Made by a program: the position numbers and the translations under genes. Below, in pieces: positions 3,851 to 60,274 of a stretch of DNA of 64,000 nt. The notes beneath the pieces were generated by a model. That model worked only from the letters and a program-made list of their open reading frames with translations, did not search any database and was not told the origin of the DNA. Where the stretch lies: positions 86,643 to 150,642 of the IMG/VR virus record IMGVR_UViG_3300049048_000052, one strand, 5' to 3'. The DNA is from a virus. The stretch's first letter is position 1; each line of letters starts with the position of its first letter.

Positions 3851-3858
3851 GAAAACTA

Positions 3859-3883: not shown

Positions 3884-3890
3884 CATTTAT

Positions 3891-4424
3891 ATGGTAAATA
3901 CTATGGATGCAAATGATATATATGGGGCGCCAGCAATAGCCTCAACCTTTGATCTAAGTCAGATAATAGGGGTATATACCAATATATTCCCTGAGCTTAA
4001 TGTTATTGGTTCATTCAATCAGAGGACCAGGGATAACATTAGAGAGAATAATAGGTCAATAGAGTTCAGGGTAACCCATCAGTTCAGCAATAGCTATGAG
4101 AGGTACAATGATGTCTCATCCTGGCTGATAGCCTCCATGTGGTATAACAGTGAGGCCTTTATGATTATGAGGAACGTAGGAAGGAATGGGGATAACTACC
4201 CTAGCTTCTTTGTGACTGATAGCCAGACCTATCATACTGCCCTATACCATCTATTCAGTCTACTAGAGGTTGATGCTGACTTCTCTGATGAGGCATGGTC
4301 ACCCCTCTCGGGAACCATAACTACGATGCCAGGGGAGCTAACAATGGTAGAGGTGGCCTATGATGATCCTACTTTGATCAAGGCATTAAATCATAGTATT
4401 AGATATGGTCCATTGACTTATTGA
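3891..4424 (+). CDS. hypothetical protein
   Basis: 177-aa ORF. Confidence 0.5.
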   Translation: MVNTMDANDIYGAPAIASTFDLSQIIGVYTNIFPELNVIGSFNQRTRDNIRENNRSIEFRVTHQFSNSYERYNDVSSWLIASMWYNSEAFMIMRNVGRNGDNYPSFFVTDSQTYHTALYHLFSLLEVDADFSDEAWSPLSGTITTMPGELTMVEVAYDDPTLIKALNHSIRYGPLTY

Positions 4425-4454
4425 TTATCAGTATTAAATAAAAGGTATATAAAC

Positions 4455-5871: not shown

Positions 5872-6196
5872 AGAGTTCTTCATAACTGATGCACAGGAAG
5901 CTAAGCTTAACAAATGGTTAACCCAGGTTAAGAAGGAAGTCTGTGAGGAACAGATGGCCTTCTATCGTGATGCCATCATTAATCGTAGGGATGATGATAT
6001 CTTACCTATTGAGTGGTATCAAACTAAACTTAGCTTCATAGAATCCTGTTACAGAGAAGACAAGTATTATCCTTATGAGGGGGCCTCTGGTGGAGGTCTA
6101 AGCTATACATTTGTGCCTACTGGTCTTGGTATGGCTGTCAGCTGTAATTACTTCGGACGTGAGATAGACCTTACTGACCTCAATAGTTGGGGATAA
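5863..6196 (+). CDS. hypothetical protein
   Basis: ATG overlaps the stop of the HAD gene (ATGTCTAA); about 110 aa. Confidence 0.4.
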
Positions 6197-6750
6197 TTAT
6201 GCTCAAAGTAATTAGTCTGATGGGAGCCCCTGGCACAGGTAAGAGTACCTTAGCCCATGGGCTCTTTTATTTGATTAGATCTCAGTTCCCCTATATTAAA
6301 ACAGAGTTCGTCTCTGAATTTGCTAAAGACATGGTATGGAGAGGGGAACCCTTCCTTAGTCAAGGCTACATTACAAGTAACCAGTTCTACAGGATGAGGA
6401 TTCTGCAGGGTAAGGTTGACCTAGTAGTAAGTGATAGTTGCCTTCTCAATGGTTTGTTATACAAAGGAACCTGGGACAATAACTATATAGAAGATTTAAT
6501 ATTGGGTCTCCATAGTCACTTTGATAACTATGTAATACATACAGGCCCTCCTCCTAAAGAGTATGAATCCTCAGGTAGGATTCAGGAATATGAGGAGAGT
6601 ATGGAGATACATAGGAATGGTATAGAAGAACTAAGACCTATGTCATCAAAGATGAAGACGATACTACCTCATTTCCAGTCAGCTGAGTCTGTACTTGCTA
6701 GTGTTATTGATAATGGGTTTCTAGATAAGTTATTAGGTAAGACAAGTTAG
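6187..6750 (+). CDS. P-loop NTPase (kinase-like)
   Basis: Walker A LMGAPGTGKSTLA near the N-terminus; small (about 185 aa), consistent with a nucleotide or polynucleotide kinase-type fold. Confidence 0.55.
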   Translation: MGIIMLKVISLMGAPGTGKSTLAHGLFYLIRSQFPYIKTEFVSEFAKDMVWRGEPFLSQGYITSNQFYRMRILQGKVDLVVSDSCLLNGLLYKGTWDNNYIEDLILGLHSHFDNYVIHTGPPPKEYESSGRIQEYEESMEIHRNGIEELRPMSSKMKTILPHFQSAESVLASVIDNGFLDKLLGKTS

Positions 6751-7197: not shown

Positions 7198-7773
7198 ATG
7201 TCCATATTTACCAAGGAGCAGTTGCTTCATATCTACGATGGTAGGTTTAGAGATAAAAACGGTAAGCTCCTCAAAAGGATGACTGACATCCTAAATATAC
7301 CCTGCACTATCTTCTGTGATATTACCAAGAACGATATGATCTTAGTATTTGTTCAAGGTATACAGGAAGGTAAACAAGTTACCTATGAGGTGGTAGAGGT
7401 TGAGATAGGAGATAATGTACCTCCTATCTTAGATGTTAGAGGAGAGGAGAGACCCCTTAATAAGGCACTGATCATTCCAGTAGCTGTATTACCTCATGTT
7501 ATACCTGGACGTATCCTCAATAAACCTCCAGACTTTGGAGATACTGAAAGGCGAATCAACAAGGGTAAGACCCTGTTCTTCTCTTATGAAGAAGAGCAAA
7601 CAGGTAGACATGTCTATCACCTGATCTGGAAGGTGGGTCTTGACACTAGGGGTAGGGACTATATAGCTGTACTGGGTTTAGAGGCAAAGCCCTTTAAGCA
7701 ACTAAAGCTGTATACACCTCAGTTTGCAAGGACCAAATCTGAGGCGAGAGAGCTTAAGCTTGTGGCCAATTGA
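7198..7773 (+). CDS. hypothetical protein
   Basis: 191-aa ORF. Confidence 0.5.
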   Translation: MSIFTKEQLLHIYDGRFRDKNGKLLKRMTDILNIPCTIFCDITKNDMILVFVQGIQEGKQVTYEVVEVEIGDNVPPILDVRGEERPLNKALIIPVAVLPHVIPGRILNKPPDFGDTERRINKGKTLFFSYEEEQTGRHVYHLIWKVGLDTRGRDYIAVLGLEAKPFKQLKLYTPQFARTKSEARELKLVAN

Positions 7774-7798
7774 TTGTTCTACATAAGGAACAATAAGA

Positions 7799-8395
7799 AT
7801 GGGATGCTTTGATAGCACCTGTGCATTGACGAGGACCTCTATCCATCATGGTGACGAGGTCCTTTATGTTCAGGTTCAACCTGATGATGCAATGGACACC
7901 TATAGCTTAGTGCATGAATTCTGGAGAGTTAAAGCTCTAGCCAAATACCATGCAGAGTGTGAAGACTTAATAAAAGAGAACCCGGCACATGCTAAGTTAT
8001 TTGAGATCCAAGAGCGGCAAGTTAGAAGGTTTATCCGTCATGTAGCCATTGGTATATATGATGATTATGGCTCTATCGAGGGCTTTGATAACGAGGACAG
8101 TGTGACTAGAAGGGATTGGATGGAGTTTCAATTCATGATTCATAGGAAGGCGGCTGAGCTATTTCTAGGTGAGTCCTTGGATCCAAATAGTCTATTTGAT
8201 CAGTTAGATAGGCTAGTAGAGAAGTGTTTCTCAGCTCGTATCCAACTCTTTGGTCATCATCTTATAGGTGCCCAACACTTTGATAGGGAAGAGTTAGCTC
8301 TACAGGAGTTAGTGATTGAGGCTACTCAACTCATGATCAATGAGAAGAAAGAATATATTAGAATCAATTGGGATGAAGATGATGAAGGACAATGA
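7799..8395 (+). CDS. hypothetical protein
   Basis: 198-aa ORF. Confidence 0.5.
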   Translation: MGCFDSTCALTRTSIHHGDEVLYVQVQPDDAMDTYSLVHEFWRVKALAKYHAECEDLIKENPAHAKLFEIQERQVRRFIRHVAIGIYDDYGSIEGFDNEDSVTRRDWMEFQFMIHRKAAELFLGESLDPNSLFDQLDRLVEKCFSARIQLFGHHLIGAQHFDREELALQELVIEATQLMINEKKEYIRINWDEDDEGQ

Positions 8396-8910
8396 TGGAT
8401 GTACTATTTTATGCAGACTCACTAGTAATGGGGAGTCTAAACGCATATGGTTACCCGAGTCTGAGGCTGTAGTAGGAAAAGAACTAGACCTTGAGACCGA
8501 GGGTCGTTGGACTTACAAGTGGTTAGTAGAAGAGATCAATCTTGATCCTAATATAGTAGAAGGATAGCTGATATATAAGGGCTCTCCTCGAAGAGCAATA
8601 TAGGGAATCATTCTTGACCTGATGGTTCCCTTTCCTATTTACAATATTATAGAAGAGCCTAGGCTCACTGGTTTAGTAGTTGGATATTCCGGGGTCCCCA
8701 TAAAGGACCCCTTTCTACATTAATTAATATATAAGGTCCCTTGTGATCGTCTCAAATCCCTAAATGTGGAGGGTCCCAACTAGGACCCTCTTTCTTATAG
8801 TAACTATTATATAAACCGCACCCCTCCCTTTGTGAACAATATAAGGGATGTCCTGAGGGGTGTGTTGATATGGGTAGACATCCCTATTTCTTAAACTAAG
8901 GATCAAGTAT

Positions 8911-11355: not shown

Positions 11356-11994
11356 ATGTCTCAGTGCAACATTGATTGCCAGTATTACCTGGTAGCAAGA
11401 AAACCTCTGTGCACCTTCCATATCAAACCACCTCCTAGATTTGAGGAATGTAGTGCTTATATTAAGGATGATTCCGAACTCCTTAGTAGAGACTCTGCTA
11501 AGACTTACTGGGAGATGTATGGCAATGGCAGATCTCAGCTGCCTAAATGGTTGGGGGTGGGGAAACACCATGAAGTTCTTAATAGTACATTAACTATTAA
11601 GAGTGAAGGCAGAAACATTAGGCTCGTAGATATGACTATCACAGTCAAGAGCGGTACCAGCCCTAGTTATGTACTCACTAATGTCTTAAGGGGAATGATT
11701 AGTAGTTGGTCCCCTAACTACAAGATAAGCACTATGGGTATGGGTAGGTTCTATGTTATTAAGCTGTCTTTTGAGATTGCTAGACATAGGCTCTGGGAGA
11801 TCAGCCGTAAACCTAAGAAGGTAATACACAGGCCTAGTGATAGAAAGAGATATAGGATGTTAGATACTATCCTTGAGTACACCAACTTTATGGGTTATGG
11901 TAATGGTCCTATAACCCCTCCTAATGTCTTTAATCTAACGGTAGAGGAGATGAGTGTCTTCATGGATAAATATCTAAGACCTAATCAGCCTTAG
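11356..11994 (+). CDS. hypothetical protein
   Basis: Internal ATG (MSQCNID...) chosen to avoid a 130-nt overlap with ORF 11001..11375. Confidence 0.4.
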   Translation: MSQCNIDCQYYLVARKPLCTFHIKPPPRFEECSAYIKDDSELLSRDSAKTYWEMYGNGRSQLPKWLGVGKHHEVLNSTLTIKSEGRNIRLVDMTITVKSGTSPSYVLTNVLRGMISSWSPNYKISTMGMGRFYVIKLSFEIARHRLWEISRKPKKVIHRPSDRKRYRMLDTILEYTNFMGYGNGPITPPNVFNLTVEEMSVFMDKYLRPNQP

Positions 11995-12041
11995 TCATAT
12001 ATGGAGGGGTAATCGCCTCTCCATATATCACAAGGAGCTAT

Positions 12042-12830
12042 ATGGATCTGGCAGTCAGGATCAAGGAATTCTATGAGTATGCATACCGCACCTTCCTACC
12101 CAGGAGGATGCCAGTCATACTTAGAGTAGATGGTAAGGCATTCCACTCTTATACAAGGGGTATGAATAGACCCTTTGATGAGAGATTGGAAGAAGTAATG
12201 AACCTTGTAGCTATTAAGCTATGTAAGGAAATACAAGGTGCTCAGATAGCCTATGTGCAATCTGATGAGATCAGTATATTAATTCATGGTTATAAGAAGC
12301 TCAATAGTGAGTCATGGTTTGGTAATAATGTACAGAAGATGACCAGTGTTAGTGCTGGTATAGCTAGTGCATGGTTTACCTACCACTCATCTAGGTTAAC
12401 TACTGTATCTGAGGATATAGGTAATACCCAACAGTTTATAGAATCTAAGCTAAAGCCAGCAGTATTTGACTCTAGGGTATTCGTACTCCCTGAATCAGAG
12501 GTATGTAACTACTTCATATGGAGACAGCAGGATGCTACTCGCAATAGTATCTCTATGCTTGCCCAGTCTTTATACTCCCATAAGGAGTTAAATGGGGTTA
12601 CATGTAATCAGATGCAGGAGCTCTGTTTCCAGAAGGGTCATAACTGGAATGATCTACCTATCATTAGAAAGAGGGGTAGATGTATTCGTAAGTTTATTAG
12701 GTATACACCTGTAGCTGGAAGACCTGAGGGTAATACAGTTGCTAGATCCTATTGGGATGTAGACTATGAGACTCCTATCTTTACTGAGAATCGTAACTAT
12801 ATTGAAGATCTATTAAAGACATATGAGTAG
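12042..12830 (+). CDS. Thg1-like protein (tRNA-His guanylyltransferase family, 3'-5' nucleotidyltransferase)
   Basis: N-terminus PVILRVDGKAFHSYTR...AYVQSDEISIL reproduces the Thg1 RVDGxxFH and SDE catalytic signatures with the correct spacing. Confidence 0.7.
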   Translation: MDLAVRIKEFYEYAYRTFLPRRMPVILRVDGKAFHSYTRGMNRPFDERLEEVMNLVAIKLCKEIQGAQIAYVQSDEISILIHGYKKLNSESWFGNNVQKMTSVSAGIASAWFTYHSSRLTTVSEDIGNTQQFIESKLKPAVFDSRVFVLPESEVCNYFIWRQQDATRNSISMLAQSLYSHKELNGVTCNQMQELCFQKGHNWNDLPIIRKRGRCIRKFIRYTPVAGRPEGNTVARSYWDVDYETPIFTENRNYIEDLLKTYE

Positions 12831-25475: not shown

Positions 25476-25754
25476 ATGAAACCAGGACCTAAGAAGGGTA
25501 GTAGTCAGAGTAAATCCCATGTTGCCAAGAGGGCCAAGGCTGTAAAAGGTAAGGCCAATGGTATGTTTAAGGATGGAAGACGTTCCTATCGTTCCATAGC
25601 GGGAGCTAGGAATAGCGATGGAAAAGTTGTGCATCACAAGGACGGTGATAGGACCAATAATTCAAGATCTAATCTAAAGGTCCTGAATGATGGTCCTAGT
25701 AGGCCAGGTAGGAAGACAACTAGTAAGCATGAAAGACTTACTAGACGTAAGTAG
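25476..25754 (+). CDS. small basic HNH (HNH_3-type) endonuclease-like protein
   Basis: 92 aa, K/R-rich, with VVHHKDGDRTNNSRSNLKVL (the HH.DG...NN...NL pattern of HNH_3-type homing endonucleases); ends exactly where a tRNA-like gene begins. Confidence 0.5.
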   Translation: MKPGPKKGSSQSKSHVAKRAKAVKGKANGMFKDGRRSYRSIAGARNSDGKVVHHKDGDRTNNSRSNLKVLNDGPSRPGRKTTSKHERLTRRK

Positions 25755-25924
25755 CCAGTGTAGCTTAAAAGGTAAAGCGTACCCCTCTCAGGGTATACCG
25801 AAAGGGTCCATAGGTAATAGGTGTAGTTGCAAGATTCTGTGAGAGTTATAAACTCCGTATTCGGCAGAGTCCCAGACTGCACAACTATACCTATGGATAT
25901 GAGGGTTCGATCCCCTTCACTGGC
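25754..25924 (+). tRNA. tRNA-like gene (anticodon-arm loop CTCTCA, Glu-like) with about 100-nt insertion after the anticodon arm
   Basis: 5' part 25754..25795: acceptor GCCAGTG, D-arm GCTT/AAAAGGTA/AAGC, stem TACCC/GGGTA. 3' part 25901..25924: T-arm GAGGG/TTCGATC/CCCTT, acceptor CACTGGC pairing 7/7. Confidence 0.35.
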
Positions 25925-26012
25925 GTTGACTAAGATAGAACAATGAGACATAAAGAAATGCCCCTCTATGTAAGACACATAAGAGGGGGTCCAATTAACT
26001 TAGGAGTAAATA

Positions 26013-33787: not shown

Positions 33788-33847
33788 ATCTTAGGGCGTA
33801 AGCCCTTATTCATTCCTCAGTGGCGCAGTGGATAGCGCACCCGCCTT

Positions 33848-34537
33848 TAGGATAGGAGCACTTCTAGGGGAAACCCTTAAAGTGAATGTGGTTAAATTCA
33901 GGGAAGACTAAGTAGATTATGATCAAACTCCCAATGACAGTTAGGACATAGAGGTACTAAGTTGTCTACAGAGTTAATGTCGTTAACTAAGGTTTCATGT
34001 GGAAAACTAGAGATGGCCTTTCTATGGGCTATTTCAACATGTTTGTTATACCCACAGTTAATACAACAAGACCAGTCGAGTTTTGCTGCTACAGCTCTAG
34101 CCCTTGCTCTAACTAAAGCATAGGCTGAGGACCTGTGATGTTTATTGTACATGGCTTCTTCTAAAGTGACATTTAGATTTAGTCCCTTACGATGAGATCC
34201 AAAGCAGGATTTACAGTAGGTTCTGGAGTTACTTATAGGAGTGGTGCATACCAAGCATTTATTCTCGGGTTTCCTCTTGGGGAAATTACGATTATTATGT
34301 GTAGCAGCACAACTCTTACTACAGAACTTAGGGTTAGTTGTTTCCTTATTACAGTTGAGACAATTCATAGTTTATATGTTAATCCTGAGCCAAGCTATTC
34401 GAAAGCCCTATTATATCATGGGTTCGAATAGAAGGTGCAGAGACTTAACAGCCACCACCTAAGGTCATAAGACTATGGTGAAGATAAAGTCCAGACTACA
34501 AACACTCTTGAGTGGCAGCTAAAGCTGTAGTAGGAGG
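33848..34537 (+). mobile_element. group I-like intron in the tRNA anticodon loop (between nt 34 and 35)
   Basis: TTCAGGGAAGACTAAG (33897..33912) and AAGATAAAGTCCAGACTACAA (34481..34501) resemble the group I R and S (P7) elements; terminal G before the 3' exon; about 210 nt of non-ORF sequence. Confidence 0.55.
33898..34368 (-). CDS. HNH homing endonuclease, encoded antisense inside the tRNA intron
   Basis: 156 aa; CINCGYNKHVEIAH...NLVPLCPNCH is a classic HNH motif, plus N-terminal CxxC pairs. Confidence 0.7.
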   Translation of the reverse strand: MNCLNCNKETTNPKFCSKSCAATHNNRNFPKRKPENKCLVCTTPISNSRTYCKSCFGSHRKGLNLNVTLEEAMYNKHHRSSAYALVRARARAVAAKLDWSCCINCGYNKHVEIAHRKAISSFPHETLVNDINSVDNLVPLCPNCHWEFDHNLLSLP

Positions 34538-43311: not shown

Positions 43312-43857
43312 TTAACTCATTGGAGTTAGTTGGTGTATTAGTTTATAAGCGTTCTTAACTAGATCTCTAGAGAGCATCTTACCACCAGATATCAATTTTA
43401 TAATTGGGTTCTTGCGTGAGTGGTCTAACTGAAATCTAGCTTGAGGATATAAGTCCAGGAAGGATGTGGCAGTATCTTTATTAGAGGCAGCTATTTCTAT
43501 CCTATAAGTCTTAACTTTATAGACTTGTACTAAAAGTTGCTTTATCAGATCTATTAAAGTAGGATCCTGGTTGCAGAAGTAAACATGATTTGTTTTATCT
43601 GTATGCCAGCCCTCACATAAATAGGCCGTATGGGCAGCAATGGAAAGAGGTGTTAGGAGTAAATCATCTGTAGGGGAGATATAGTTCTTCCTAGCTAGAA
43701 AGTTATACTCTGAGGCAGATCTCATTGGTATATGGTACTTCCTTAAGTAAGACCTAATAGTCTTATGGTTACAGGCTAGTAACTGACCTATCTGATAGGG
43801 ATTAAGTTCCTGAGTCAGGTATAGATCCTCAAGTACCTCTTTATTAATTAACTTCAT
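43312..43857 (-). CDS. intron-encoded protein, antisense (HTH plus LAGLIDADG-like, putative homing endonuclease)
   Basis: 181 aa inside the second tRNA intron; N-terminal helix-turn-helix-like segment and AYLCEGWHTDK, loosely resembling a single LAGLIDADG motif. Confidence 0.5.
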   Translation of the reverse strand: MKLINKEVLEDLYLTQELNPYQIGQLLACNHKTIRSYLRKYHIPMRSASEYNFLARKNYISPTDDLLLTPLSIAAHTAYLCEGWHTDKTNHVYFCNQDPTLIDLIKQLLVQVYKVKTYRIEIAASNKDTATSFLDLYPQARFQLDHSRKNPIIKLISGGKMLSRDLVKNAYKLIHQLTPMS

Positions 43858-44111
43858 AATCCTGAGCCTTCATGTAGAAATACATGTTGTGAACGAAGCT
43901 ATATGCGGGAAACGCTTAAAGCCTACAACACTATATGTCTACCAAGATATAAGTAACAGTTTGTAGGATGTAACAATAGCCAATCCGCAGGGAAGATACC
44001 TAGGTATCCCCTCAGAGACTAAACGCTTTGCACCTTAACGTAGAGACGAAGGTGATGATATAGTCCAGACTACAACAGCTTACGCTGGCCTATGAAAGTA
44101 GGAGTAGTAAG
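43314..44111 (+). mobile_element. group I-like intron in the tRNA-Leu anticodon loop (between nt 34 and 35)
   Basis: TCAGAGACTAAACGC (44012..44026) resembles R; GATGATATAGTCCAGACTACAACAGC (44054..44079) resembles S; terminal G; near-identical S region to the first intron. Confidence 0.55.
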
Positions 44112-45282: not shown

Positions 45283-45630
45283 ATGGAAATGGATATATTT
45301 AGCCCCTCAAGACTCGTCTGTATTCACTATGGAAATAATGCTATAGATGAGATAATGGATGGTAGAGCTGAGGAAGCCCTAGATAAACTAGAGAAGGCTC
45401 GTGAGGATGATATGTTCGATATGGAGCATTATCAATCTATACTGCTCTATGTGGGTGCATGCCTTAAACAAGAGAGCATGGGCCATTATATACAATTCCT
45501 ATTGACTATCTTTGATGAAGATGATATTACTAGTATTAACACCGCAGATTCTAAGGTCAATGGTGTCCTAGCGGAAGCGGCAGCAATCCATAGCGGGGAT
45601 GGAGCAACGGGAGGCTCGATGGTCTCATAA
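45283..45630 (+). CDS. hypothetical protein
   Basis: 115 aa, preceded by a 14-bp-stem hairpin. Confidence 0.4.
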   Translation: MEMDIFSPSRLVCIHYGNNAIDEIMDGRAEEALDKLEKAREDDMFDMEHYQSILLYVGACLKQESMGHYIQFLLTIFDEDDITSINTADSKVNGVLAEAAAIHSGDGATGGSMVS

Positions 45631-45666
45631 GCCATACATCGCTGAGTTCAATTCTCAGCCCCGACA
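45593..45666 (+). tRNA. tRNA-like (anticodon CAU) with imperfect acceptor stem
   Basis: D-arm GAGC/AACGGGAG/GCTC, anticodon stem-loop ATGGT CTCATAA GCCAT, T-arm CTGAG/TTCAATT/CTCAG. The acceptor pairs only 5/7 and the loop overlaps the TAA stop of CDS 45283..45630. Confidence 0.35.
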
Positions 45667-45898
45667 TTGTCAGTTTACCTGTCCTGACGTTGTGAAAAGA
45701 TAGGTGTAGGTCATAGGCCTAACTAGCAAGAATTGAGTTCGAATCTCAACAGGTCCATTTCGAGGGCCTGACTTGGTAATCGATTGTTAGCATGAGGAAC
45801 TATGACTGAAGGTGTGTACAACCAAAGTACAGAACAACAAGTGCAACCAATAACATTGTACCCTTCTCAAGGGTAAGTTCTATAGTAGTGTAATCTAC

Positions 45899-46663
45899 TC
45901 AGGCGTTTAGTATACTAAACGCCTGCTCTTTTTTACGCATACAGTAGGGACCACCTAAGTTATATAACCTAAATATAAAAGTCTTAAGGATTTTACCTTG
46001 AAAGGAGAAACCGTACTGATTATTCCAGTTGGGATTCTTACTTTGCAAGTCCCTCATATGTACATTAAGGGATATATCTAGTAGTTTGTTGAGCCTAGAG
46101 GCTAGAGTATACATAAAAGACTTTGAGCATCCATAGGCTGTAAGTCTACGGGAGGACCAACACCCGTCAGAGTCTAGATATCCTCTAATGAAATCTAACT
46201 CGTAGACGCTGTCTATAAGAGGCTCAGGGTAAATCATAGTCTTGGACTTATTACTTTCTAACTTTAGGATAGTAGTTAGATCTCTATGTAGACTAGTGGA
46301 ACATATAGCGAGCTGAAGACAGTTAGAAGCTATATTCCTTATTTTATAATCGGTATTGAGGTTAGATTGTATCTGTTCTAGAATATCCCTGTCCGAGGTA
46401 GTAAATACTATCTGACATCCATTTCTATGTAAGTGACCATCCCCATACAATACACCTAACATCCAAGCTTTAAAGGTGTCCATAGGGAACAATTTATAGT
46501 TCTTAAGCTTAGATAATGGCTTATAGGACATTGCCCCGGAGCTCTGCAGGACTTTGTATATACAATAAGAGGATAGCCCTAATTTAGAACTAATATTTGT
46601 AACAGACTGACCCTCCTTATACATAGTTATAATAGGCGTTGGGTTAATATGAGTAGATTTCAT
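45899..46663 (-). CDS. LAGLIDADG homing endonuclease (two-motif type)
   Basis: WMLGVLYGDGHL and FIRGYLDSDGCW are the two LAGLIDADG motifs; N-terminal HTH-like segment. Confidence 0.7.
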   Translation of the reverse strand: MKSTHINPTPIITMYKEGQSVTNISSKLGLSSYCIYKVLQSSGAMSYKPLSKLKNYKLFPMDTFKAWMLGVLYGDGHLHRNGCQIVFTTSDRDILEQIQSNLNTDYKIRNIASNCLQLAICSTSLHRDLTTILKLESNKSKTMIYPEPLIDSVYELDFIRGYLDSDGCWSSRRLTAYGCSKSFMYTLASRLNKLLDISLNVHMRDLQSKNPNWNNQYGFSFQGKILKTFIFRLYNLGGPYCMRKKEQAFSILNA

Positions 46664-48105: not shown

Positions 48106-48419
48106 TTTATATGTGCCTATCTTATTCAGTCGGCATATGTAACTATATAAATATCTCCATCAAACTGATAGAGTCATAGAGCCTATATGGTCTCTGACTA
48201 AGAGCTGATACGGATGGAATATTGGGGGATAGGTACTCCCGATGAGGGCCCCAGCTCTCAACACAAATATCAGCTCTCCTAGCAACTAACTGGCTTATGC
48301 TAACCCTTAATCAGGTAATCATATATTGGTTCAACTCCAATAGTTGCTTTTCCCAGTCGCATAACTTGCGTTCCCAACTGGGATTCTTAGCAATGGTTGG
48401 CTTAGTCCAATCATTTCTT

Positions 48420-48492
48420 GAGGCTGTCGTCTAAAATGGTAGGACTCCCCAAGTTAGTGGGGCAGATGTAGGTTCAAATCCTACCGGCTTCA
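48420..48492 (+). tRNA. tRNA with non-canonical anticodon loop
   Basis: Acceptor GAGGCTG/CGGCTTC, D-arm GTCT/AAAATGGTA/GGAC, stem CCCCA/TGGGG enclosing a 6-nt loop AGTTAG (or 4-bp stem plus 8-nt loop), T-arm GTAGG/TTCAAAT/CCTAC. Confidence 0.45.
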
Positions 48493-48497
48493 TTTAT

Positions 48498-52032: not shown

Positions 52033-52467
52033 ATGACTATTGAAATACAAGTACACAATAGAGAGACTATTGTTAAGGCAGTAACAGAGTTGCCCAAGGG
52101 CAACCGTACGATGGTTATCAGTATAACCAATGAGCAAGACTGGCCTCGACTACCTCCTGTGAAGCTAGAGGAGTACGTTATGCTCAGCTTCTATGATAAT
52201 GATGGGCCTGATAGTTGTACACCATGTATGACCAGGGGACAGGCTAAGAGAGTAGTATCTACCTTTATGGCATGTAAGGATAAGCTAACCCATCTGCTAA
52301 TCAATTGTGATGCTGGAATATCCCGAAGCGCAGGTATGGCAGAAGCTTTCTCGCTACTTGTGTATGGTAAGGACTATTACTATACATGTGATAGAATCCC
52401 CGCCCCTAATGCTTGGGTGAAGAGGCTGACATTGGAGGCCGGGGGTCTTGCTCATGGCTACCAGTGA
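52033..52467 (+). CDS. Cys-based CX5R phosphatase (PTP/DSP-like fold)
   Basis: LINCDAGISRSAG gives the HCxxGxxR(S/T)-type P-loop with the catalytic Cys. Confidence 0.5.
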   Translation: MTIEIQVHNRETIVKAVTELPKGNRTMVISITNEQDWPRLPPVKLEEYVMLSFYDNDGPDSCTPCMTRGQAKRVVSTFMACKDKLTHLLINCDAGISRSAGMAEAFSLLVYGKDYYYTCDRIPAPNAWVKRLTLEAGGLAHGYQ

Positions 52468-53040: not shown

Positions 53041-53079
53041 TTATTGACTTTATTGATTGGTCCGCTTTTATTGATTGTG
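53041..53079 (+). promoter_or_regulatory. three copies of the TTATTGA(C/T)TG motif upstream of gene 53115
   Basis: TTATTGACTTTATTGATTGG ... TTTATTGATTGTG; the same decamer recurs at 4412, 15513, 18657, 18996, 22957, 32511, 44245, 51266, 53574 and 57175. Confidence 0.45.
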
Positions 53080-53114: not shown

Positions 53115-53564
53115 ATGGCTAACGTAATCACTGCACAAACCCCCATCCGTATCACCATTGCTACCCCCGGTCGTAATGGTAATATCAGTGGGGATATTGT
53201 ATCTCGTGTAGTAATGGCAAGCGTACTGGGCTTCCCCAAAGAGGGTTTGGAAGCCCCAGTATTCCCTCAACAAGAGGTAGCATCTATCAATGGTAATGAG
53301 AAGCTGACGGCCGCTGATAAGCAGTCCCGTGTTAACGCTATCATTCTTGAGTACACTGAAGCCCAGAATGCATTCCTGCATTCTGGTGGCGTCAATGCAT
53401 TGGATATGGTGCCCTCTGCTGTTGTGGATTATCTGGTAGCACATGAAGGCTTCTCTGCTAATGGTAGAGATGAAAAGCCTTATGTTCGTGCTACGGACTT
53501 GGTTGCTAACTTCGTTGAAGATGGCACCGCTGTCCAAGTTTATCCTAGCGCAACCTGGGGTTAA
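53115..53564 (+). CDS. hypothetical protein
   Basis: 149 aa; three copies of the TTATTGA(C/T)T motif within 75 nt upstream. Confidence 0.5.
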   Translation: MANVITAQTPIRITIATPGRNGNISGDIVSRVVMASVLGFPKEGLEAPVFPQQEVASINGNEKLTAADKQSRVNAIILEYTEAQNAFLHSGGVNALDMVPSAVVDYLVAHEGFSANGRDEKPYVRATDLVANFVEDGTAVQVYPSATWG

Positions 53565-53616
53565 TACCTAGGCATATTGATTTTATTGATTGTCCCTATT
53601 AGTTTGAATTAGGACA

Positions 53617-55104
53617 ATGGAAGTGGATAGAGTTAGTTACAGACAATACAGTCCTGCACTGAGAAGATTAAACCTCAGGGATGGTAAATACTATCTGGAC
53701 TATGGGTATGATGATATAGAAGTAAAGCTGCAGCCCTTATCTGAGTTAGGTAAGAAGCTACTGGGTGATAATACTTCTAGAGTTATAGATCGTAGATTAC
53801 TCAATAAGTATGACTTTGATGATGGGCACTGGAGGATCAACGGTAGATTCTGTAAGACTCCTGTGGTACCAGTCTATCTAGACTCGTTACTGAATAACTC
53901 TCACCCTCTAATGACCTTGGGTGATGATGTGGCAGGTATTGTAGAGCTAGGGGAGAAGCTCTTAGCTGACTTTCAGCCCCCTCAGATCAATAATGAGGGC
54001 TACACTAAGATACTTACTCAGGGTACACATGATAGATCAGGTCACTTCTACCCTCGTCTGACTCAGGTTACAATCAATGGCAAGGGGGGAATAGATGATA
54101 AGACTGAGGAACTCTACCGTCTTATCAGTAGTTACTTGGAGATCCTTGATGTCTCTGGAGTGGCAGTTAGGGATAGTGCTATCTACACATCCGTAGTCCA
54201 TCAGAAACTTAAGGAGGCTAAGGTCACCATAAGAAACGCTAGGGATGAGCATGCTGGAGGTGGTCGCCCTGATATCCTGTTTGCGGATACGCTAAGTGTT
54301 CCCAAGCTTACGGAGGAAGAGGCAGCAAAGCTAATCATGAACGCACGTAGAGAGAATAGGTTGAGAGGTTACATAACTGATAAACCTACACTCTCTGAGT
54401 TGGAAGATAACACTGAGATGCTAGCTAAGTTCCAGGAAGCTACTAAGTCTATTAAGGGCTTAGTTATTAGCTATCTCCGTAAGCGTGATCCCATTGTATT
54501 CACCGCAGGTAGTAACTTCGGGGTTTCACCTGAGGCTTGGAATATGGATCTTGAGGAGAAGGATAGAATGGGACCCCTAACCGCTATCATAGATCATGAG
54601 GGTAATATAGGTTGGGGTAGCCCTCATAAAGAGGGTAACCGTATGATCTCCAACAATGGTCCTATTGTTCACTATATGGGCCCTAGCTGGTGTGTTAGAT
54701 TCCATTATGTGAATGATGAGGGTGTTACCATCGATGTGCTTCAGGATAATGAGATATTCTGCGTCACAGGTCAGATGTATGCAGATGCTATTAGACCTTA
54801 CCGGCCAGACCTGCTAGAGTTATGGCAACCAGATCCTGAGGCTATCTACTTTGTATGTAGCTACTGGTGCCAAAGAAGTGGGGCCTTTGCTAAGCATAAC
54901 GGTATCCTGGACTTCTATAATGTCTTCCGTATGCGTTGGACATTGGCAGAATGGATTACATATTCTCTAGTGCCTAAGTGTGTAAACATGGGTATTAACA
55001 TACCTGGTTACAATGAGAAAGCCATGGTTGATGGACAGACTCAGTCCGCCAGACTTGCAGCTATCAAGGATTATCTAACTAAGGCTAATGCCCTTAAAAG
55101 TTAA
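53617..55104 (+). CDS. hypothetical protein (first gene of the E1-like operon)
   Basis: 495 aa; motif upstream; 12-nt gap to the next gene. Confidence 0.55.
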   Translation: MEVDRVSYRQYSPALRRLNLRDGKYYLDYGYDDIEVKLQPLSELGKKLLGDNTSRVIDRRLLNKYDFDDGHWRINGRFCKTPVVPVYLDSLLNNSHPLMTLGDDVAGIVELGEKLLADFQPPQINNEGYTKILTQGTHDRSGHFYPRLTQVTINGKGGIDDKTEELYRLISSYLEILDVSGVAVRDSAIYTSVVHQKLKEAKVTIRNARDEHAGGGRPDILFADTLSVPKLTEEEAAKLIMNARRENRLRGYITDKPTLSELEDNTEMLAKFQEATKSIKGLVISYLRKRDPIVFTAGSNFGVSPEAWNMDLEEKDRMGPLTAIIDHEGNIGWGSPHKEGNRMISNNGPIVHYMGPSWCVRFHYVNDEGVTIDVLQDNEIFCVTGQMYADAIRPYRPDLLELWQPDPEAIYFVCSYWCQRSGAFAKHNGILDFYNVFRMRWTLAEWITYSLVPKCVNMGINIPGYNEKAMVDGQTQSARLAAIKDYLTKANALKS

Positions 55105-55116
55105 CTAGGAAATAGA

Positions 55117-55821
55117 ATGAATCTAATATTAGTTGGGGCTGGGCAATTGGGCTCAGCCTTTATCTTGGAATTGCTTAAACGGATATCGGCTACAGGTTTC
55201 ACTGCTATCACTATACATATCTATGATGATGATATCGTAGAGGATAGGAATACCCATGTACAGTATTTCACCCCCAGGGATCGAGAGAAGCCCAAGGCTG
55301 TGGTTATGGCTGACCTGGCTGCAGAGTATGGTATAAAGGCCATCGCCCATGTTGAGCGCTTTGCCTTCCCAGATCTACAAGCTATGGAGAACGTGGTAGT
55401 GGTTGATGCTGTAGACAATGTCAGCACCAGGTATGCTCTGTGGAACTATGCGGTAACACAGAATGTACCCCTGATGACTATGGGTAATAGCCTGAAGGGT
55501 AATGGCTTTGTCACATGGACCTGTGCTGCCTTTGATCACAACACCTGGGGCCTAGGTGCAGGTAGCTACACTGCAATCATGAATGCAATCGAGAAAGAAA
55601 AGGAACCTGAAGAGAAGGTACCCCCTTGTGAACTAACTAAGTATAGAGGTCTAGCCCTTAATACTGCGTTGGCCGCATGTGAGGCATTCCTTATCTATTG
55701 GGGTCAGGATGTCATGATTAGAATAGACCCTGAGGTATATCAAGCTGGCTTCGTCACTGAGTGGCGTATCAAGCCCGAGGGTTATGAGTTGGTTCACATT
55801 AGTTATATGGAAGGTAAGTAG
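55117..55821 (+). CDS. ThiF/MoeB (E1-like) adenylyltransferase family protein
   Basis: LVGAGQLGSAF Rossmann GxGxxG followed by IHIYDDDIVEDRNTHVQYF (matches the ThiF D.D.Ve.sNl.RQ block); C-terminal GLALNTALAACEAFLIYWG resembles the ThiF C-terminal motif. Confidence 0.6.
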   Translation: MNLILVGAGQLGSAFILELLKRISATGFTAITIHIYDDDIVEDRNTHVQYFTPRDREKPKAVVMADLAAEYGIKAIAHVERFAFPDLQAMENVVVVDAVDNVSTRYALWNYAVTQNVPLMTMGNSLKGNGFVTWTCAAFDHNTWGLGAGSYTAIMNAIEKEKEPEEKVPPCELTKYRGLALNTALAACEAFLIYWGQDVMIRIDPEVYQAGFVTEWRIKPEGYELVHISYMEGK

Positions 55822-57156
55822 ATGGTTTATTATCAAGCAGCAGCAAGTCTAACTCCTAAACTCTATGTAGAGGTTGTAGGTGGTATCAATTGGCATATCA
55901 CATCAGCCACTCAGTACCTTATCAATATTGTTAAGGAGCATATGGATTGCTTCGAGGGTATTGCTGATGGGGTAAAGTATGTTAAGGCCTTGATCCCGCC
56001 AGAAAGAGCGGCCTACACATCATCAACACCACAGGTCCTTACTTGTGGTCTAGTGGCAACCTCAGCCTACATGAAACACAATCTGGGGATGGAAACAGAT
56101 AACCATGATGAGTACTGGTACAAGACTCATCCTCTATGTGTTGCATCTGGTTTACCTCAGCAACATACGCTGAGTGTTATCCATCATCTGGTCAACCCTT
56201 ATGGCCTGGGTATCTCTAAGGTATTCCATCGACGTGGAGTATCTATGAGCCCTGATGCTATTAAGTGGATGACTTATCTACCTCCTAATCCTATGGGCTA
56301 TGGTAATCGTACTACTAGCAATAAGGAATATGCGGAGCTATGTGGCTTTGATCCTAAAGTTGTAGAGTCGGAGTACTCTACGGAGTTCGTGGATAAGCCT
56401 AAGGGTCCTGTTATCCTGTTCAATGCAGTGGCAGCTACTACATCCTTTGCTAGTGGAGGGGGCCACGCTAGTTATGCAGGTCCTAGAGCTAAATTCCATA
56501 GTTGGGAGATGGCCATCCGACTTGATAGACTGGAGAGGATCAACTATGCAGTTGAACCTGAGATCGTTGAGGTTGAGCCTAAGCTAAATCAAGTCCTAGA
56601 TGTATGGAAGTGCTTGACCAAGGATGGTGCAACTCTTGAGAGCAAGAAGCCTCAGGGTACTACCTTTGTTGTGCCTCCTATGCAGAAGAGTCTATTGCCT
56701 CTATTACCCTCTAATAATAGTCTTATTATCAGTAAGGGAGAGTTTGAGGACTTCAAGAGATATAATCCTAACCGGATTACGGATGATGACTATAAGGAAG
56801 TATTGAAGCATCCTGTAAATAAGGAGAGGGTAGAAAGCTTCCTTAGTATGTTGATGAATGAAGTCGATAAACTAGGTGAGACATCTGACATTCTGGTGGC
56901 GGCGGGTGGTGTTAAACTAAAGGATCTATCTCAGAAGATAGGCGCTGTCCAATGTATCACAGACTTGAAGAATAAGTTATGTGCTATAGCCAAGGGTGTT
57001 ACTGAGCTTACCTTATCAGATATCATCTATTTCAACCGGCAGTTGGTCGAGGATAAGACCTATGATATTATCTGGGCACTTGGTGACGAGATGCTAGATA
57101 ACATGTTGGATGAATGGATTCTGAACCTGTATGGTGTTAACGACTATACTAAATGA
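55822..57156 (+). CDS. hypothetical protein (third gene of the E1-like operon)
   Basis: 444 aa; its ATG immediately follows the E1-like stop. Confidence 0.55.
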   Translation: MVYYQAAASLTPKLYVEVVGGINWHITSATQYLINIVKEHMDCFEGIADGVKYVKALIPPERAAYTSSTPQVLTCGLVATSAYMKHNLGMETDNHDEYWYKTHPLCVASGLPQQHTLSVIHHLVNPYGLGISKVFHRRGVSMSPDAIKWMTYLPPNPMGYGNRTTSNKEYAELCGFDPKVVESEYSTEFVDKPKGPVILFNAVAATTSFASGGGHASYAGPRAKFHSWEMAIRLDRLERINYAVEPEIVEVEPKLNQVLDVWKCLTKDGATLESKKPQGTTFVVPPMQKSLLPLLPSNNSLIISKGEFEDFKRYNPNRITDDDYKEVLKHPVNKERVESFLSMLMNEVDKLGETSDILVAAGGVKLKDLSQKIGAVQCITDLKNKLCAIAKGVTELTLSDIIYFNRQLVEDKTYDIIWALGDEMLDNMLDEWILNLYGVNDYTK

Positions 57157-57214
57157 GTACTTTTAGTACTCTAACTATTGATTGAATTGATTTACTCTTT
57201 ATTATTGGTCCAGT

Positions 57215-59326
57215 ATGGATAGAAGATATTTTGAACTGATTAAACCTAAGTACTTGACTTGGGAGTTTCTATCTAAGTATGTGGAGGTCAAGCCTCCTTT
57301 TGGGGCTATAGGACCCATCGTATATCTAAGGACATACTCTAGGTTTGTCCCTCAAATGAGCAGGAGGGAGTTGTGGTGGGAGACCTGTATGAGGGTAACT
57401 GAATATAGTATGTCCCTATTCCCAGCTAAGCCTAGGTACCCTATGTCCTTCGAGGAGTTACAGGCAGAGGCAGAGGAACTCTTTGATAACCTATTCTGGA
57501 TGAAGGTCTTTGCTGCAGGGCGTACTATGTTCACTGGAGGGGCCCAACTGAAGACTGGGGACTCTCAATTCAATTGTAGCTTTATTGCTGTTAGTGAGTT
57601 GAAGGCATTCAAGGATGCCCTGTATCTCCTGATGAATGGTTGTGGTGTTGGTTTCTCAGTTGAGAGGCAGTACACGGAGAATCTACCCAGGTTCAGACAG
57701 GACTTTAAGGTTAGACATCTGGATTATAATCCGATAGCTAGGGGAAAAAGAGAGGACATCACTCGTCTTGAAGAGGATGATAACAACCACATAATCAAGA
57801 TAGGAGATAGTAAGGAAGGCTGGTGCGATGCACTGTTTGGTTTCCTGTCTAACTTAGCAGATCTGAGCTGTTGGAAGAACTTTGTATTTATATACAACGA
57901 TGTCAGACCTGAGGGTGAGAAGCTTAAGACCTTTGGTGGTAGAGCCAGTGGGCCTGCACCCCTAAGACTAATGTTCGAGCGTATTGAACAGACCATCAAG
58001 GAAGCGCCTAAGGGTCATCTGAGACCTGTAGACGTAATGGATATCATGAATATCATTGCGGCCGCAGTAGTTGTAGGTGGTGTCCGTAGGTCCTCTGAGA
58101 TTGCCTTTGGTAACCTAGATGATGTGGACTTCGTAGAGGCTAAGCTGAACCTATGGTCTGATCCAGATAAGCAAAGGTACCAGGCTACTAGAGTTCTCTC
58201 CAATAACTCTGTGGCTATATGGGAGAAACCTAGTAAGGCCCAGCTAGTAGATATATTTGAACGTATTAAGAATAATGGTGAGCCTGGCATCTCTATTGCA
58301 GGTAATGCCGCTAAGAGAAGACCTAACTATAAGGGCTCTAATCCATGTCATGAGATCCTATTGGATCATAATGGAGTATGTAATTTAACTACTATAAATA
58401 TGGCTGCCTTTGTGGAGGCTGATCGTATCTTTAACTGGAAGGCCTTTGAGAGAGCGCTTTATCATGCAGTCCGTATGGGTTCCCGTATTACCAATGTTAA
58501 TATGTGGGATCCTGATTGGGATTATGTTCAGAAGAGAGACCGCCTACTAGGTGTATCCCTAACTGGTCAAATGGACTGCTGGAATAAGATGGGGGTAGAC
58601 TTTGATAGTACTACTGCCATCAATATACTCTCTAGTGCTAAGGCTTATGCTAGGGCATACGCAGATGAATACCATAATATCATGGGTATTCCTACATCCC
58701 TTCTGATTACTACTGTTAAACCAGAGGGCACGATCTCTCAGTTACCTACAGTAAGCAGTGGGGTCCATGCTAGTTATGCTCCTTATTACATTAGGAGAGT
58801 AAGGATTAGTAGTAATGATCCTGTGGCTAAAGCACTAAGGGACATGGGTCTAGAACCTCAGCCTGAGAATGGACAAGGTAAAGACCTGGATGCTCCTGAC
58901 TGTTCCACCTGGGTATTCAGCTTCCCCATTAAGACTGATGCTAAGATCAGGGCCATTGATGAGCCTGCGATCCGTCAGCTTAAGAGGTACAAGGTTATGA
59001 TGGATGAGTATGTTGATCATACTTGTTCTATTACCGTTACTGTGGCCCCGGATGAATGGGATGAGGTAGTAGATTGGGTCTACGACAATTGGGAGTCCTG
59101 TGTAGGTATTGCATTCTTACCTAGGTTTGATCCTAGTGAGCCGGGTAACATGTACCCTCAGATGCCATATGAGACATGTACTGAAGAACAGTACCATGAG
59201 ATGGTTAAGGCCATGGGTACCATCGATGAGGATGAGCTTGTAGCTTTGATCTCAGTCTTTGAGCAGGAGTACGAGGAGCATGAGCTTGATGCAGGCTGTG
59301 CTACTGGTATGTGTCCCGTTAGATAA
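57215..59326 (+). CDS. ribonucleotide reductase large subunit (class II-like, monomeric type)
   Basis: 703 aa; GSNPCHEIL active-site block (the SN(P/L)C.EI thiyl-radical loop); C-terminal cysteine pair GCATGMCP. Confidence 0.7.
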   Translation: MDRRYFELIKPKYLTWEFLSKYVEVKPPFGAIGPIVYLRTYSRFVPQMSRRELWWETCMRVTEYSMSLFPAKPRYPMSFEELQAEAEELFDNLFWMKVFAAGRTMFTGGAQLKTGDSQFNCSFIAVSELKAFKDALYLLMNGCGVGFSVERQYTENLPRFRQDFKVRHLDYNPIARGKREDITRLEEDDNNHIIKIGDSKEGWCDALFGFLSNLADLSCWKNFVFIYNDVRPEGEKLKTFGGRASGPAPLRLMFERIEQTIKEAPKGHLRPVDVMDIMNIIAAAVVVGGVRRSSEIAFGNLDDVDFVEAKLNLWSDPDKQRYQATRVLSNNSVAIWEKPSKAQLVDIFERIKNNGEPGISIAGNAAKRRPNYKGSNPCHEILLDHNGVCNLTTINMAAFVEADRIFNWKAFERALYHAVRMGSRITNVNMWDPDWDYVQKRDRLLGVSLTGQMDCWNKMGVDFDSTTAINILSSAKAYARAYADEYHNIMGIPTSLLITTVKPEGTISQLPTVSSGVHASYAPYYIRRVRISSNDPVAKALRDMGLEPQPENGQGKDLDAPDCSTWVFSFPIKTDAKIRAIDEPAIRQLKRYKVMMDEYVDHTCSITVTVAPDEWDEVVDWVYDNWESCVGIAFLPRFDPSEPGNMYPQMPYETCTEEQYHEMVKAMGTIDEDELVALISVFEQEYEEHELDAGCATGMCPVR

Positions 59327-59509: not shown

Positions 59510-60274
59510 CTAAGCTGAAATAAAGTGAGCCCACATACCTATTGAGTCAACGCAGGTTTCTGTCATCATGTTATATGAGTACAGGACCTGCTTGCCCTTG
59601 GCTGGGTTGGAACTGTCATTCCTATCGTAGCCCCATTGGTACCACTCACCATAAGGATCATTTACAATGAAGCCCTTGCTATTGTAACCGACCAGCGTAA
59701 CTATGTGACCAGAGGAAGTAAAGTAGCCATGGACAACAACAGGGAAGCCCTTACGTAACCATGCCTTTACCTCATCAAAGTTAGCATTATCAACGAAGGT
59801 ATCCTTAAATCCGAAACCCTTAACAGCCTCAGCCAAGTGTTGAGGAGAGTGTCTAGATAAACCATTAGACTCTACCCACATCTGAATTTCATCCTCTAAC
59901 TGATCAGGGCCCGAGGCACTTAGACCTAGGTATGCCATGGCCATAGCTATAGAGGTAACATTACAGGAGCCATATGGATACATCTTATTATCCAATTGGC
60001 TGAAGTAAGGTACATCTAGTAGTACCTCACCATTAGGTGCCTCCTTGATCTCATGGTCTACAGAGCAATGACCCATGAATACATACCAGGTATTCATATT
60101 GTTAATAAGGTTAGCAGGGTTAAGTACTACTCTATAATGACCTTTCTCAGTAGCAAGTGAATCAACAATGAAGGACTTACCTTTAACTACTGCAGCCTTC
60201 TGATCCTTAGGTAGTTCACTAGCCTGAGCATTGGATCTTTTGAACGTAGTATCAACGTTTACTATTAATTTCAT
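59510..60274 (-). CDS. peptidase C39-like (papain-fold) domain protein, possible cell-wall hydrolase
   Basis: YFSQ.D...YPYGSCNVTSIAMAMAYLG (Gln/Cys block) and GHIVTLVGYN...NDPYG (His block) fit the C39/C39_2 catalytic arrangement. Confidence 0.55.
   Translation of the reverse strand: MKLIVNVDTTFKRSNAQASELPKDQKAAVVKGKSFIVDSLATEKGHYRVVLNPANLINNMNTWYVFMGHCSVDHEIKEAPNGEVLLDVPYFSQLDNKMYPYGSCNVTSIAMAMAYLGLSASGPDQLEDEIQMWVESNGLSRHSPQHLAEAVKGFGFKDTFVDNANFDEVKAWLRKGFPVVVHGYFTSSGHIVTLVGYNSKGFIVNDPYGEWYQWGYDRNDSSNPAKGKQVLYSYNMMTETCVDSIGMWAHFISA

Follow-up and report, generated by a model that had tools for sequence, protein, structure and literature searches.

To our knowledge, every ubiquitination-like conjugation pathway that has been experimentally characterized in prokaryotes (CBASS Cap2/3, Bil and Bub) is a bacterial antiphage system. 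Type II CBASS with its Cap2/Cap3 proteins, Bil (BilABCD) and Bub are operons that combine an E1 domain with a substrate ending in a C-terminal glycine and a dedicated peptidase (PMC10557695, PMC11601596). The substrate in CBASS is not a classical ubiquitin-like protein (Ubl), which provides a precedent for E1 substrates outside the beta-grasp fold (PMC10557695, PMC11601596). More generally, E1 substrates are classically recognized by a conserved glycine at the C-terminus, which lies free or is covered by a tail; examples are ThiS, MoaD, ubiquitin, Atg8 and type II CBASS CD-NTases (PMC1779556, PMC10557695). Here we describe four neighboring genes centered on an E1-like enzyme in a 64,000-nucleotide stretch of viral DNA (positions 86,643 to 150,642 of the IMG/VR record IMGVR_UViG_3300049048_000052, hereafter the window). 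Judging from their sequences and their order in distant relatives, we hold with moderate confidence that they form a phage-encoded, E1-dependent module of a type not described before. The four genes, with the names used throughout and their product lengths in amino acids (aa), are:

53115-53564, + strand: WG protein gene, 149 aa, predicted E1 substrate or modifier, ending in ...PSATWG-stop; Gly149 codon at 53559-53561.
53617-55104, + strand: gene A, 495 aa, conserved in its C-terminal half (residues ~256-480); Cys418 codon at 54868-54870.
55117-55821, + strand: E1, an E1-like adenylation enzyme of 234 aa; Cys171 codon at 55627-55629.
55822-57156, + strand: gene C, 444 aa, with an N-domain of residues ~10-280 (nucleotides 55849-56661); Cys75 codon at 56044-56046 and His215 codon at 56464-56466.

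Gene A, E1 and gene C share one reading frame, and the stop codon of E1 (TAG, 55819-55821) abuts the start codon of gene C (ATG, 55822). These three open reading frames (ORFs) had been singled out in an earlier note on the same DNA, whose coordinates, lengths (495, 234 and 444 aa) and spacings of 12 and then 0 nucleotides we verified. The note described a three-gene operon. The three genes stand, and the size of the unit has to be revised to four genes, with the 149-aa gene upstream as the fourth (10/10 loci). The note had itself suspected that the gene at 53115, preceded by three copies of a promoter-like motif (53041-53077), might belong to the group, and the presence of a homologue in all 10 of these loci bears this out. 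An identical E1 protein is found on two contigs, one 183 kb and the other 252 kb long, and the source is therefore an uncultivated jumbo phage.

The E1 protein matches the Pfam ThiF family (PF00899) over residues 3-176 (E-value 7e-14), scoring 51.9 bits where the cut-off is 28.1. The earlier assignment of the middle gene as a minimal ThiF/E1-like enzyme with a GxGxxG motif is thereby confirmed, this motif reading GAGQLG; a DAVDN motif is present as well. Across 10 sequences of the family, the invariant residues are G7, G9, G12, D37, D39, R44, N45, Q49, K60, D97, D100, N101, R105 and C171, the last within PPCEL. The set of nucleotide-binding residues is complete, comprising GxGxxG, the ribose-binding Asp that follows strand 2, the Lys and the Mg/alpha-phosphate Asp of D97-x-x-D100-N101. 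When compared with the PDB, the family profile matches the active adenylation domains of UBA6 (2.6e-15), ThiF (6.6e-15), MoeB and UBA1, with further matches to TcdA, UBA5 and Uba4 (to ~1e-9), SAE2, UBA3, MccB (9e-6) and PaaA (3.6e-4). By sequence, E1 is a bona fide member of the E1 superfamily, standing at roughly equal distance from the sulfur-carrier and the ubiquitin branches.

None of the specialized families that we compared claims this enzyme. E1 scores below the NCBIfam equivalog cut-offs of TIGR02356 (40.5 vs 275), NF004281 (24.7 vs 266) and TIGR02355 (17.9 vs 377), and for PRTRC-ThiF (TIGR03736) it reaches 40.0 bits where 144.75 would be required; no PRTRC or ParB genes occur in the examined contexts. 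The best PADLOC match is BilD (E 5e-7), over residues 2-109 only, and the E1-E2 models give E-values of at least 1e-3. The outcome that the earlier note had set against its own proposal, namely a plain MoeB/ThiF paralogue between virion proteins, does not describe this locus: E1 lies far below the equivalog cut-offs and no flanking gene is virion-like.

To find relatives, we scanned 1.84 billion cluster representatives (clusters at 50% identity) exhaustively with HMMER, using gene A and gene C concatenated as the query. The scan returned 265 hits at E<=1e-3, 220 of them at E<=1e-10. Nearly all align to residues ~10-290 of gene C, and three (P0004, P0033 and P0146) are full-length relatives of gene A. 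The module is no singleton; it is a member of a large unnamed family of phages and metagenomes, with at least 265 clusters for gene C. A word-indexed protein search had missed the very entries of gene A and gene C and had returned only the self-hit for E1, which reflects a limit of the index and not an absence. Since the exhaustive scan recovered 265 sequences, a verdict of no homologues from a word-indexed search is untrustworthy for proteins of this kind. Within IMG/VR, single-protein scans gave no close relatives and an alignment-based scan gave two loci. Among GenBank phages, neither tblastn with gene A, E1 and gene C nor a nucleotide search with the region found a match; the ribonucleotide reductase (RNR) is alone among the proteins of the region in having GenBank phage relatives, the nearest being from Nodularia phages at <=47% identity. 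Patterns derived from gene C found nothing in 185,579 species-representative genomes, a result that, for the patterns used, only weakly supports an absence from cellular genomes. We found no description of the module in the literature searched, and a comparative review of jumbo phages does not mention E1 or ThiF.

The relatives define 12 independent contexts of metagenomic or viral origin (window/L001, L002-3, L004/8, L005-7, L009, L010, L012, L013, L014, L015, L016 and L017/18). In all 12, the gene C homologue is directly preceded by an E1 gene, and a gene A homologue lies upstream of E1 in every contig that is long enough on that side. The proteins are no more than ~20-45% identical to those of the window, and the gene order has therefore been maintained by selection and not by recent common descent. 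One may ask whether the four genes are mere neighbors in one phage lineage that form no functional unit. All four products are previously unstudied, and several of the loci come from related large phages sharing genes for RNR, RlaP and HATPase_c_3, as this explanation would have it. Against it, the order is kept in 12 of 12 contexts at such low identity despite wholly different surrounding genes, and the genes overlap or abut in most loci, so that we regard chance proximity as extremely improbable. The RNR gene follows the module in three loci, the window included. Because the flanking genes vary and this adjacency is lost in four loci (L005, L009, L014 and L017), the module is an independent unit and not an appendage of RNR. 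The earlier suggestion of an undescribed adenylation or conjugation module is in this way strengthened, with the E1 confirmed, its partners unnamed and the synteny strict in distant relatives.

Comparison of the WG, gene A, E1 and gene C families with hhalign revealed no relationship among them, and the idea of duplicated domains within the module was dismissed on this ground.

The first gene of the module encodes the most telling protein. Ten loci extend far enough to show what precedes gene A, and in each of them a homologue of the WG protein, 140-190 aa in length, is encoded upstream of it, directly so in nine and with one gene in between in L017. They are 25-34% identical to the WG protein, the most divergent (L012) only 17%, and the family has no Pfam, PHROG, PADLOC or PDB-sequence match. 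Only P48, D97, L107 and Gly149 are invariant. The C-terminus reads ...[V/T]-[W/F]-G: the Gly is found in 10/10 loci, and the penultimate residue is Trp in eight loci, Phe in two and never Gly. In nine loci the Gly is the terminal residue, and in L003 the sequence ...AVWG is followed by a 45-residue extension. This conserved Gly, either exposed or masked by a tail, makes the WG protein a probable E1 substrate. The WG protein lacks the terminal di-glycine of ubiquitin-like modifiers and has their conserved C-terminal Gly; because its terminus is aromatic-Gly, it is missed by a search for a Ubl ending in Gly-Gly. We modeled it with AlphaFold2 fused to gene A, using unpaired homologue rows (mean predicted local distance difference test score, pLDDT, of 58). 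The WG part, with pLDDT means of ~58-89 in 10-residue blocks, folds into strands at 10-18 and 24-34, three helices, strands at 129-133 and 140-144, and the PSATWG tail. The modeled topology is compatible with an elaborated beta-grasp, short of proof.

What E1 would do to such a terminus depends in part on its cysteine. In a MAFFT alignment that included the E. coli MoeB and ThiF sequences, Cys171 appears to share a column with MoeB C187 and ThiF C184, presumably the crossover-loop position where E1 catalytic cysteines operate and where the Cys domain of ubiquitin E1s is sited. Relative to these two sequences, E1 has neither of the two CxxC zinc motifs, carries RNxxxQ in place of SNLQRQ and has a crossover loop longer by ~17 residues. 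Cys184 of ThiF forms an acyl-disulfide with ThiS, and the module could accordingly be a sulfur-carrier system, in which E1 would convert the WG C-terminus to a thiocarboxylate (as for ThiS, MoaD, TtuB and Urm1) and the cysteine-bearing partners would thiolate tRNA, DNA or a cofactor. The position of Cys171 at that of ThiF Cys184 speaks for this, as do an E1 that is as near to ThiF/MoeB as to the eukaryotic E1s, the invariant cysteines of the partner proteins and a phage rich in tRNA biology (13 tRNA genes and a Thg1-like gene). The expected company is missing, however: a rhodanese, cysteine desulfurase, PP-loop ATPase or radical-SAM partner occurs in 0 of 12 contexts. The zinc CxxC motifs typical of MoeB/ThiF are likewise absent from E1, and its scores with the NCBIfam models of ThiF, MoeB, MoeZ and UbaA are 5-10 times under the cut-offs. 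Moreover, the sulfur carriers that we know of all end in Gly-Gly and are 66-100 aa long, whereas the WG family has 140-190 aa and a Trp/Phe-Gly end. We therefore judge a sulfur carrier to be unlikely.

The WG C-terminus could also be the site of tailoring of the MccB/PaaA or RiPP (a peptide made by the ribosome and modified after translation) kind, E1 converting it to an amide, a phosphoramidate or a cyclic product that is not transferred to any target. MccB requires a C-terminal Asn for its chemistry, unlike the Gly found here. MccB (9e-6) and PaaA (3.6e-4) are among the weaker profile matches of E1, and E1-like enzymes of this kind are reported to act on the C-termini of ribosomal peptides (PMC12250964). 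The WG protein, by contrast, is a folded protein of ~150 aa and no short peptide, and E1 starts at the Rossmann strand, with no RiPP recognition element or peptide-clamp N-domain. We found no exporter or immunity genes nearby, in the window or in the related contexts, and three invariant cysteines in three proteins suggest a relay over a one-step reaction. Tailoring thus seems to us highly improbable.

A further explanation dispenses with the WG protein altogether. Here E1 would act on a non-protein carboxylate, either a modified nucleoside, as TcdA does on t6A, or an intermediate of nucleotide metabolism or DNA hypermodification, with gene A and gene C as accessories and the WG gene as a conserved neighbor with another role. 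The best single-sequence PDB match of E1 is indeed TcdA (E 1.3e-4), the module stands directly upstream of the class II RNR in the three loci mentioned above, and the window, L004 and L005 each have an RlaP-type nucleotidyltransferase gene within a few kb on the downstream side. With the family profile, TcdA does no better than UBA6, ThiF and MoeB, and the NCBIfam TcdA model gives 25.6 against a cut-off of 304. A conserved catalytic Cys corresponding to Cys171 is not known from TcdA. The WG gene stays in place where the adjacency to RNR is lost (L005, L009, L014 and L017), and a Gly invariant in 10 loci, together with the precursor-type variant, is hard to explain unless the WG protein is a C-terminal substrate. 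We give this explanation little credence, marginally less than the sulfur carrier.

If the WG protein is activated by E1, the two remaining proteins are candidates for the steps that follow. We aligned gene A with seven homologues, three from the exhaustive search and four read from the loci, all of them beside the same E1 family. In these eight sequences, the invariant residues are G76, P146, E261, A307, Y353, G355, F362, R396, L399, C418, R420, D432 and W446, with Cys418 in the motif S-x-W-C-x-R. In the AlphaFold2 model, residues ~260-470 have pLDDT values of 50-90 and C418 sits at a strand-to-helix junction. No HPN motif is found near C418 and Pfam gives no UQ_con or UBC-like match, in a protein whose fold is only partly modeled. 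Gene A may act as a thioester carrier or a ligase, or may itself be a target.

For gene C, an AlphaFold2 model was built from an alignment of 58 sequences. Residues 10-280 are predicted with pLDDT >95, followed by ~160 C-terminal residues that are variable, helical and of low confidence. C75, G110, N156, G214 and R222 are conserved in 58/58 sequences, D96 in 57/58, and H215 and N167 in 55/58. In the model, with pLDDT >95 at these sites, C75 begins the helix 75-88 and H215 (in GGGHASYxGPR) begins the strand 215-219. A Cys at the start of a helix and a His at the start of a strand form the nucleophile/general-base layout of papain-like (clan CA-type) and transglutaminase-like thiol enzymes. Because the placement of C75 and H215 matches this layout, gene C is a probable thiol enzyme, the modeled N-domain pointing to a thiol peptidase or transferase whose fold has no clear counterpart in the PDB. 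Its H103-P104 follows C75 at a distance of 28 residues, which departs from the arrangement of UBC/E2 enzymes, where an HPN motif comes about 8-10 residues ahead of the catalytic Cys.

Neither gene A nor gene C has a match in Pfam (even at E<=10), PHROGs, PADLOC, NCBIfam or PDB sequences, and in none of the 58 gene C relatives does Pfam place a domain over the N-region. This agrees with the earlier impression that the flanking proteins carry no E2, JAB or Ubl signatures. We also considered gene A and gene C as partners of the aGPT-pyrophosphorylase type in DNA hypermodification or of the YcaO type, and dropped both ideas since Pfam returned no such match at E<=10.

Taken together, these features led us to propose the following pathway. 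E1 would bind ATP and adenylate Gly149 of the WG protein, and Cys171 of E1 would then attack the acyl-adenylate to form a thioester. The WG protein would next be relayed, probably as a thioester, to Cys418 of gene A and/or Cys75 of gene C, and would end up amide-linked to a target. The order of this relay is inferred, and so is a protein conjugate as its product. The N-domain of gene C would most likely serve as the processing or deconjugating peptidase, exposing the Gly in tailed homologues; alternatively, it could be a transferase, leaving the peptidase and carrier or ligase roles of gene C and gene A to be assigned differently.

Extending this reading, we tentatively suggest that large phages encode a complete Ubl-like conjugation pathway of their own, in which a minimal E1 works with members of three protein families that have no kinship with UBC, RING or JAB. 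An aromatic-Gly modifier similar to ATG12/ATG8 would be joined to host or phage proteins during infection, or conceivably to a lipid amine, and the functions of E2, ligase and protease would have been invented independently, for host takeover or counter-defense. The last point is a guess that comes from the genes next to the module, because its relatives lie beside Gad1, NAMPT/NUDIX, PARP/Macro and RlaP/PNKP RNA-repair genes, some of them established or presumed counter-defense genes. In L005, NUDIX, NAMPT, Macro and WGR-PARP genes (837-6429) precede the module and RlaP and PNKP genes follow it. In L004, a gene of the Gad1 (anti-Gabija) family lies near the module (7733-8647), and the window also encodes an RlaP nucleotidyltransferase. 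Other neighbors are a sigma-factor gene in L009 and SLT and helicase genes in L014.

Several observations weigh against the conjugation pathway, beginning with a biological role that is suggested by neighboring genes only. Neither gene A nor gene C resembles UBC/E2, RING, JAB or any known deubiquitinase in sequence, and residues 1-255 of gene A, half of the protein, are without a usable model (pLDDT <50). Set against MoeB and ThiF, E1 starts at the Rossmann strand and so appears to lack the N-terminus of ~30 residues that bears the arginine finger. Finally, the block that the earlier note had read as 'D.D.V...N..RQ' is in fact DDDIVEDRNTHVQ, or R44-N45-T-H-V48-Q49, with Val48 where the Arg of the canonical 'RQ' is expected; the invariant Arg is R44, just before N45. 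R44 may stand in for the canonical Arg, and the catalytic competence of E1 is assumed on this basis.

The expression of the module may follow a regulatory signal of the phage itself. Within the window, the decamer TTATTGATTG occurs with <=1 mismatch at 20 sites (17 on the + strand), whereas shuffled sequences contain 5.6 +/- 2.7; examples are 15513, 18657, 18995, 51625, 53050, 53068, 53583 and 57175. Several copies, such as those at 53050, 53068, 53583 and 57175, fall in short intergenic gaps, sometimes in tandem. The motif copies and the hairpin around the module are:

53041-53077, + strand: three motif copies (TTTATTGACT, TTTATTGATTG, TTTTATTGATTG) of the form TTATTGA(T/C)T, upstream of the WG gene.
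53577-53592, + strand: two motif copies (TTGATTTTATTGATTG), upstream of gene A.
57155-57171, + strand: hairpin formed by a perfect palindrome of 7 bp (GAGTACTTTTAGTACTC), which overlaps the gene C stop codon.
57175-57192, + strand: two motif copies, ahead of the RNR gene at 57215.

Its distribution makes TTATTGATTG a candidate for a promoter or regulator site specific to the phage, and it does not conform to the sigma-70 consensus. Scans for sigma-70 promoters and for terminators gave no more hits than shuffled sequences, and a possible RNA hairpin in the intergenic region 53575-53629 is not significant (z = -0.74). The triple motif ahead of the WG gene fits a modifier that is required in excess over its own enzymes. 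The hairpin at 57155-57171 probably marks where the unit ends on its 3' side, given that the motif copies preceding RNR come right after it, and may act as a terminator.

Some loci carry additional genes within or near the module. In L009, a contig of 245 kb, two further genes without annotation, encoding 235 and 233 aa (4767-6168), stand between the gene A homologue and E1, and in L017 the gene between the WG homologue and gene A encodes 188 aa. These insertions may be lineage-specific accessory components. L017 (NCBI GCA_040384025.1, JAWVHG010000277.1) also has a second ThiF-family gene of 243 aa at 11965-12696, 2.7 kb downstream of the module, preceded by a 101-aa ORF ending in ...GFVAK and followed by three unannotated genes; it may represent a second E1 system in one element.

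The genes of the window lie nearly all on the + strand, with a G+C content of ~42%. On its 3' side, the module is adjoined by the gene for a class II (B12-dependent) RNR at 57215-59326. A cobalamin adenosyltransferase (PF01923) is encoded at 2758-3543, alongside this adenosylcobalamin-dependent enzyme; with both encoded, the phage might itself provide the form of the cofactor that its RNR needs. The sole sizeable minus-strand gene near the module (59510-60274) encodes a Peptidase_C39_2/AvrRpt2-like cysteine peptidase that is labeled an endolysin in PHROGs. About 650 nucleotides upstream of the module, at 52033-52467, lies the gene of a 144-aa protein with a match to dual-specificity phosphatases (DSPc) below the cut-off (E 2e-4) and a match to PHROG 5614.

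ARAGORN predicts 13 tRNA genes in the window, between 17383 and 50277, including a tandem pair of tRNA-Tyr genes and one gene with an odd anticodon loop (48419-48493). Rfam adds a 172-nucleotide tRNA match at 25754-25925, possibly with an intron, and a gene for a Thg1-like tRNA-His guanylyltransferase is located at 12042-12830. Two group I introns (Rfam RF00028) are detected at 33837-34513 (54.1 bits) and 43845-44086 (66.8 bits), each overlapping or abutting a minus-strand ORF (33898-34368, 156 aa, and 43312-43857, 181 aa). These two ORFs could be homing endonucleases. ARAGORN also calls a permuted 'tmRNA' at 45668-45984, right after a tRNA-Met gene (45591-45667) and overlapping a minus-strand ORF of 254 aa (45899-46663) with a faint LAGLIDADG match. 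As Rfam has no tmRNA there at its gathering score, the call probably reflects an artefact, or else a further intron or homing element.

Compared with the systems from which we started, the module shares the overall scheme and few of the parts. CBASS, Bil and Bub are bacterial defense operons, whereas the module is phage-encoded. Their components include an E2 of the UBC type, in many cases as a fusion with the E1, together with a JAB or Ser/His peptidase, none of which the module partners match in PADLOC or Pfam, and the E1 of the module is by contrast a stand-alone minimal domain of 234 aa. The module departs likewise from E1-E2 systems of the 6A-MBL type, where a UBC-like E2 is fused or adjacent to the E1. 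In its stand-alone E1 it resembles ThiF-ThiS and MoeB-MoaD, with which it has in common a stand-alone E1 of ~240 aa, GxGxxG, the Asp of DxxDN, a Cys in the C184/C187 column and a substrate ending in Gly. It differs from them in having no arginine finger or CxxC, in its 'RNxxxQ', in a W/F-Gly substrate of 140-190 aa and in the lack of sulfur-mobilizing partners. TcdA, the tRNA ct6A37 dehydratase, is likewise a stand-alone E1-like enzyme; unlike the proposed pathway, it acts on tRNA without a protein substrate, and UBA6 and ThiF outscore it with the family profile.

The eukaryotic autophagy system ATG7/ATG12-ATG8/ATG4/ATG3-ATG10 offers another parallel, human ATG12 ending in ...WG and ATG8/LC3 in ...FG after cleavage. 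Aromatic-Gly modifiers and tailed forms recur in both, and so would, as predicted for the module, a Cys/His protease and non-canonical Cys carriers in place of a classical UBC with RING, a likeness that is a functional analogy only. The E1 of the module, however, lacks the N-terminal domain of ATG7, and we detected no sequence similarity to ATG proteins. Among phages, the closest arrangement is that of TAPI (Ubl) and TAPK (JAB + NlpC/P60) of lambda and T1, which pairs a small protein, whose Ubl-like domain bears a conserved C-terminal Gly, with a papain-fold peptidase (PMC1779556). That pair belongs to a tail-assembly cluster without an E1, whereas the module is centered on its E1 and lies among genes of early, metabolic or counter-defense type.

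If our reading is true, E1-driven tagging would have a widespread counterpart in phages and would thus serve viruses, too, in their conflict with bacteria. With partners that show no detectable kinship to E2, E3 or deubiquitinase enzymes, the module could bring to light new enzymatic answers to thioester relay and deconjugation. Its E1, with no zinc site and no arginine finger, would inform the minimal needs of such an enzyme. It also offers a working hypothesis for hundreds of 'hypothetical protein' clusters in metagenomes, which can be tested with four small genes. Set beside the described systems, E1-driven activation and conjugation of a C-terminus is known in kind; what is new here is that it would be encoded by a phage and served by three unnamed partner families.

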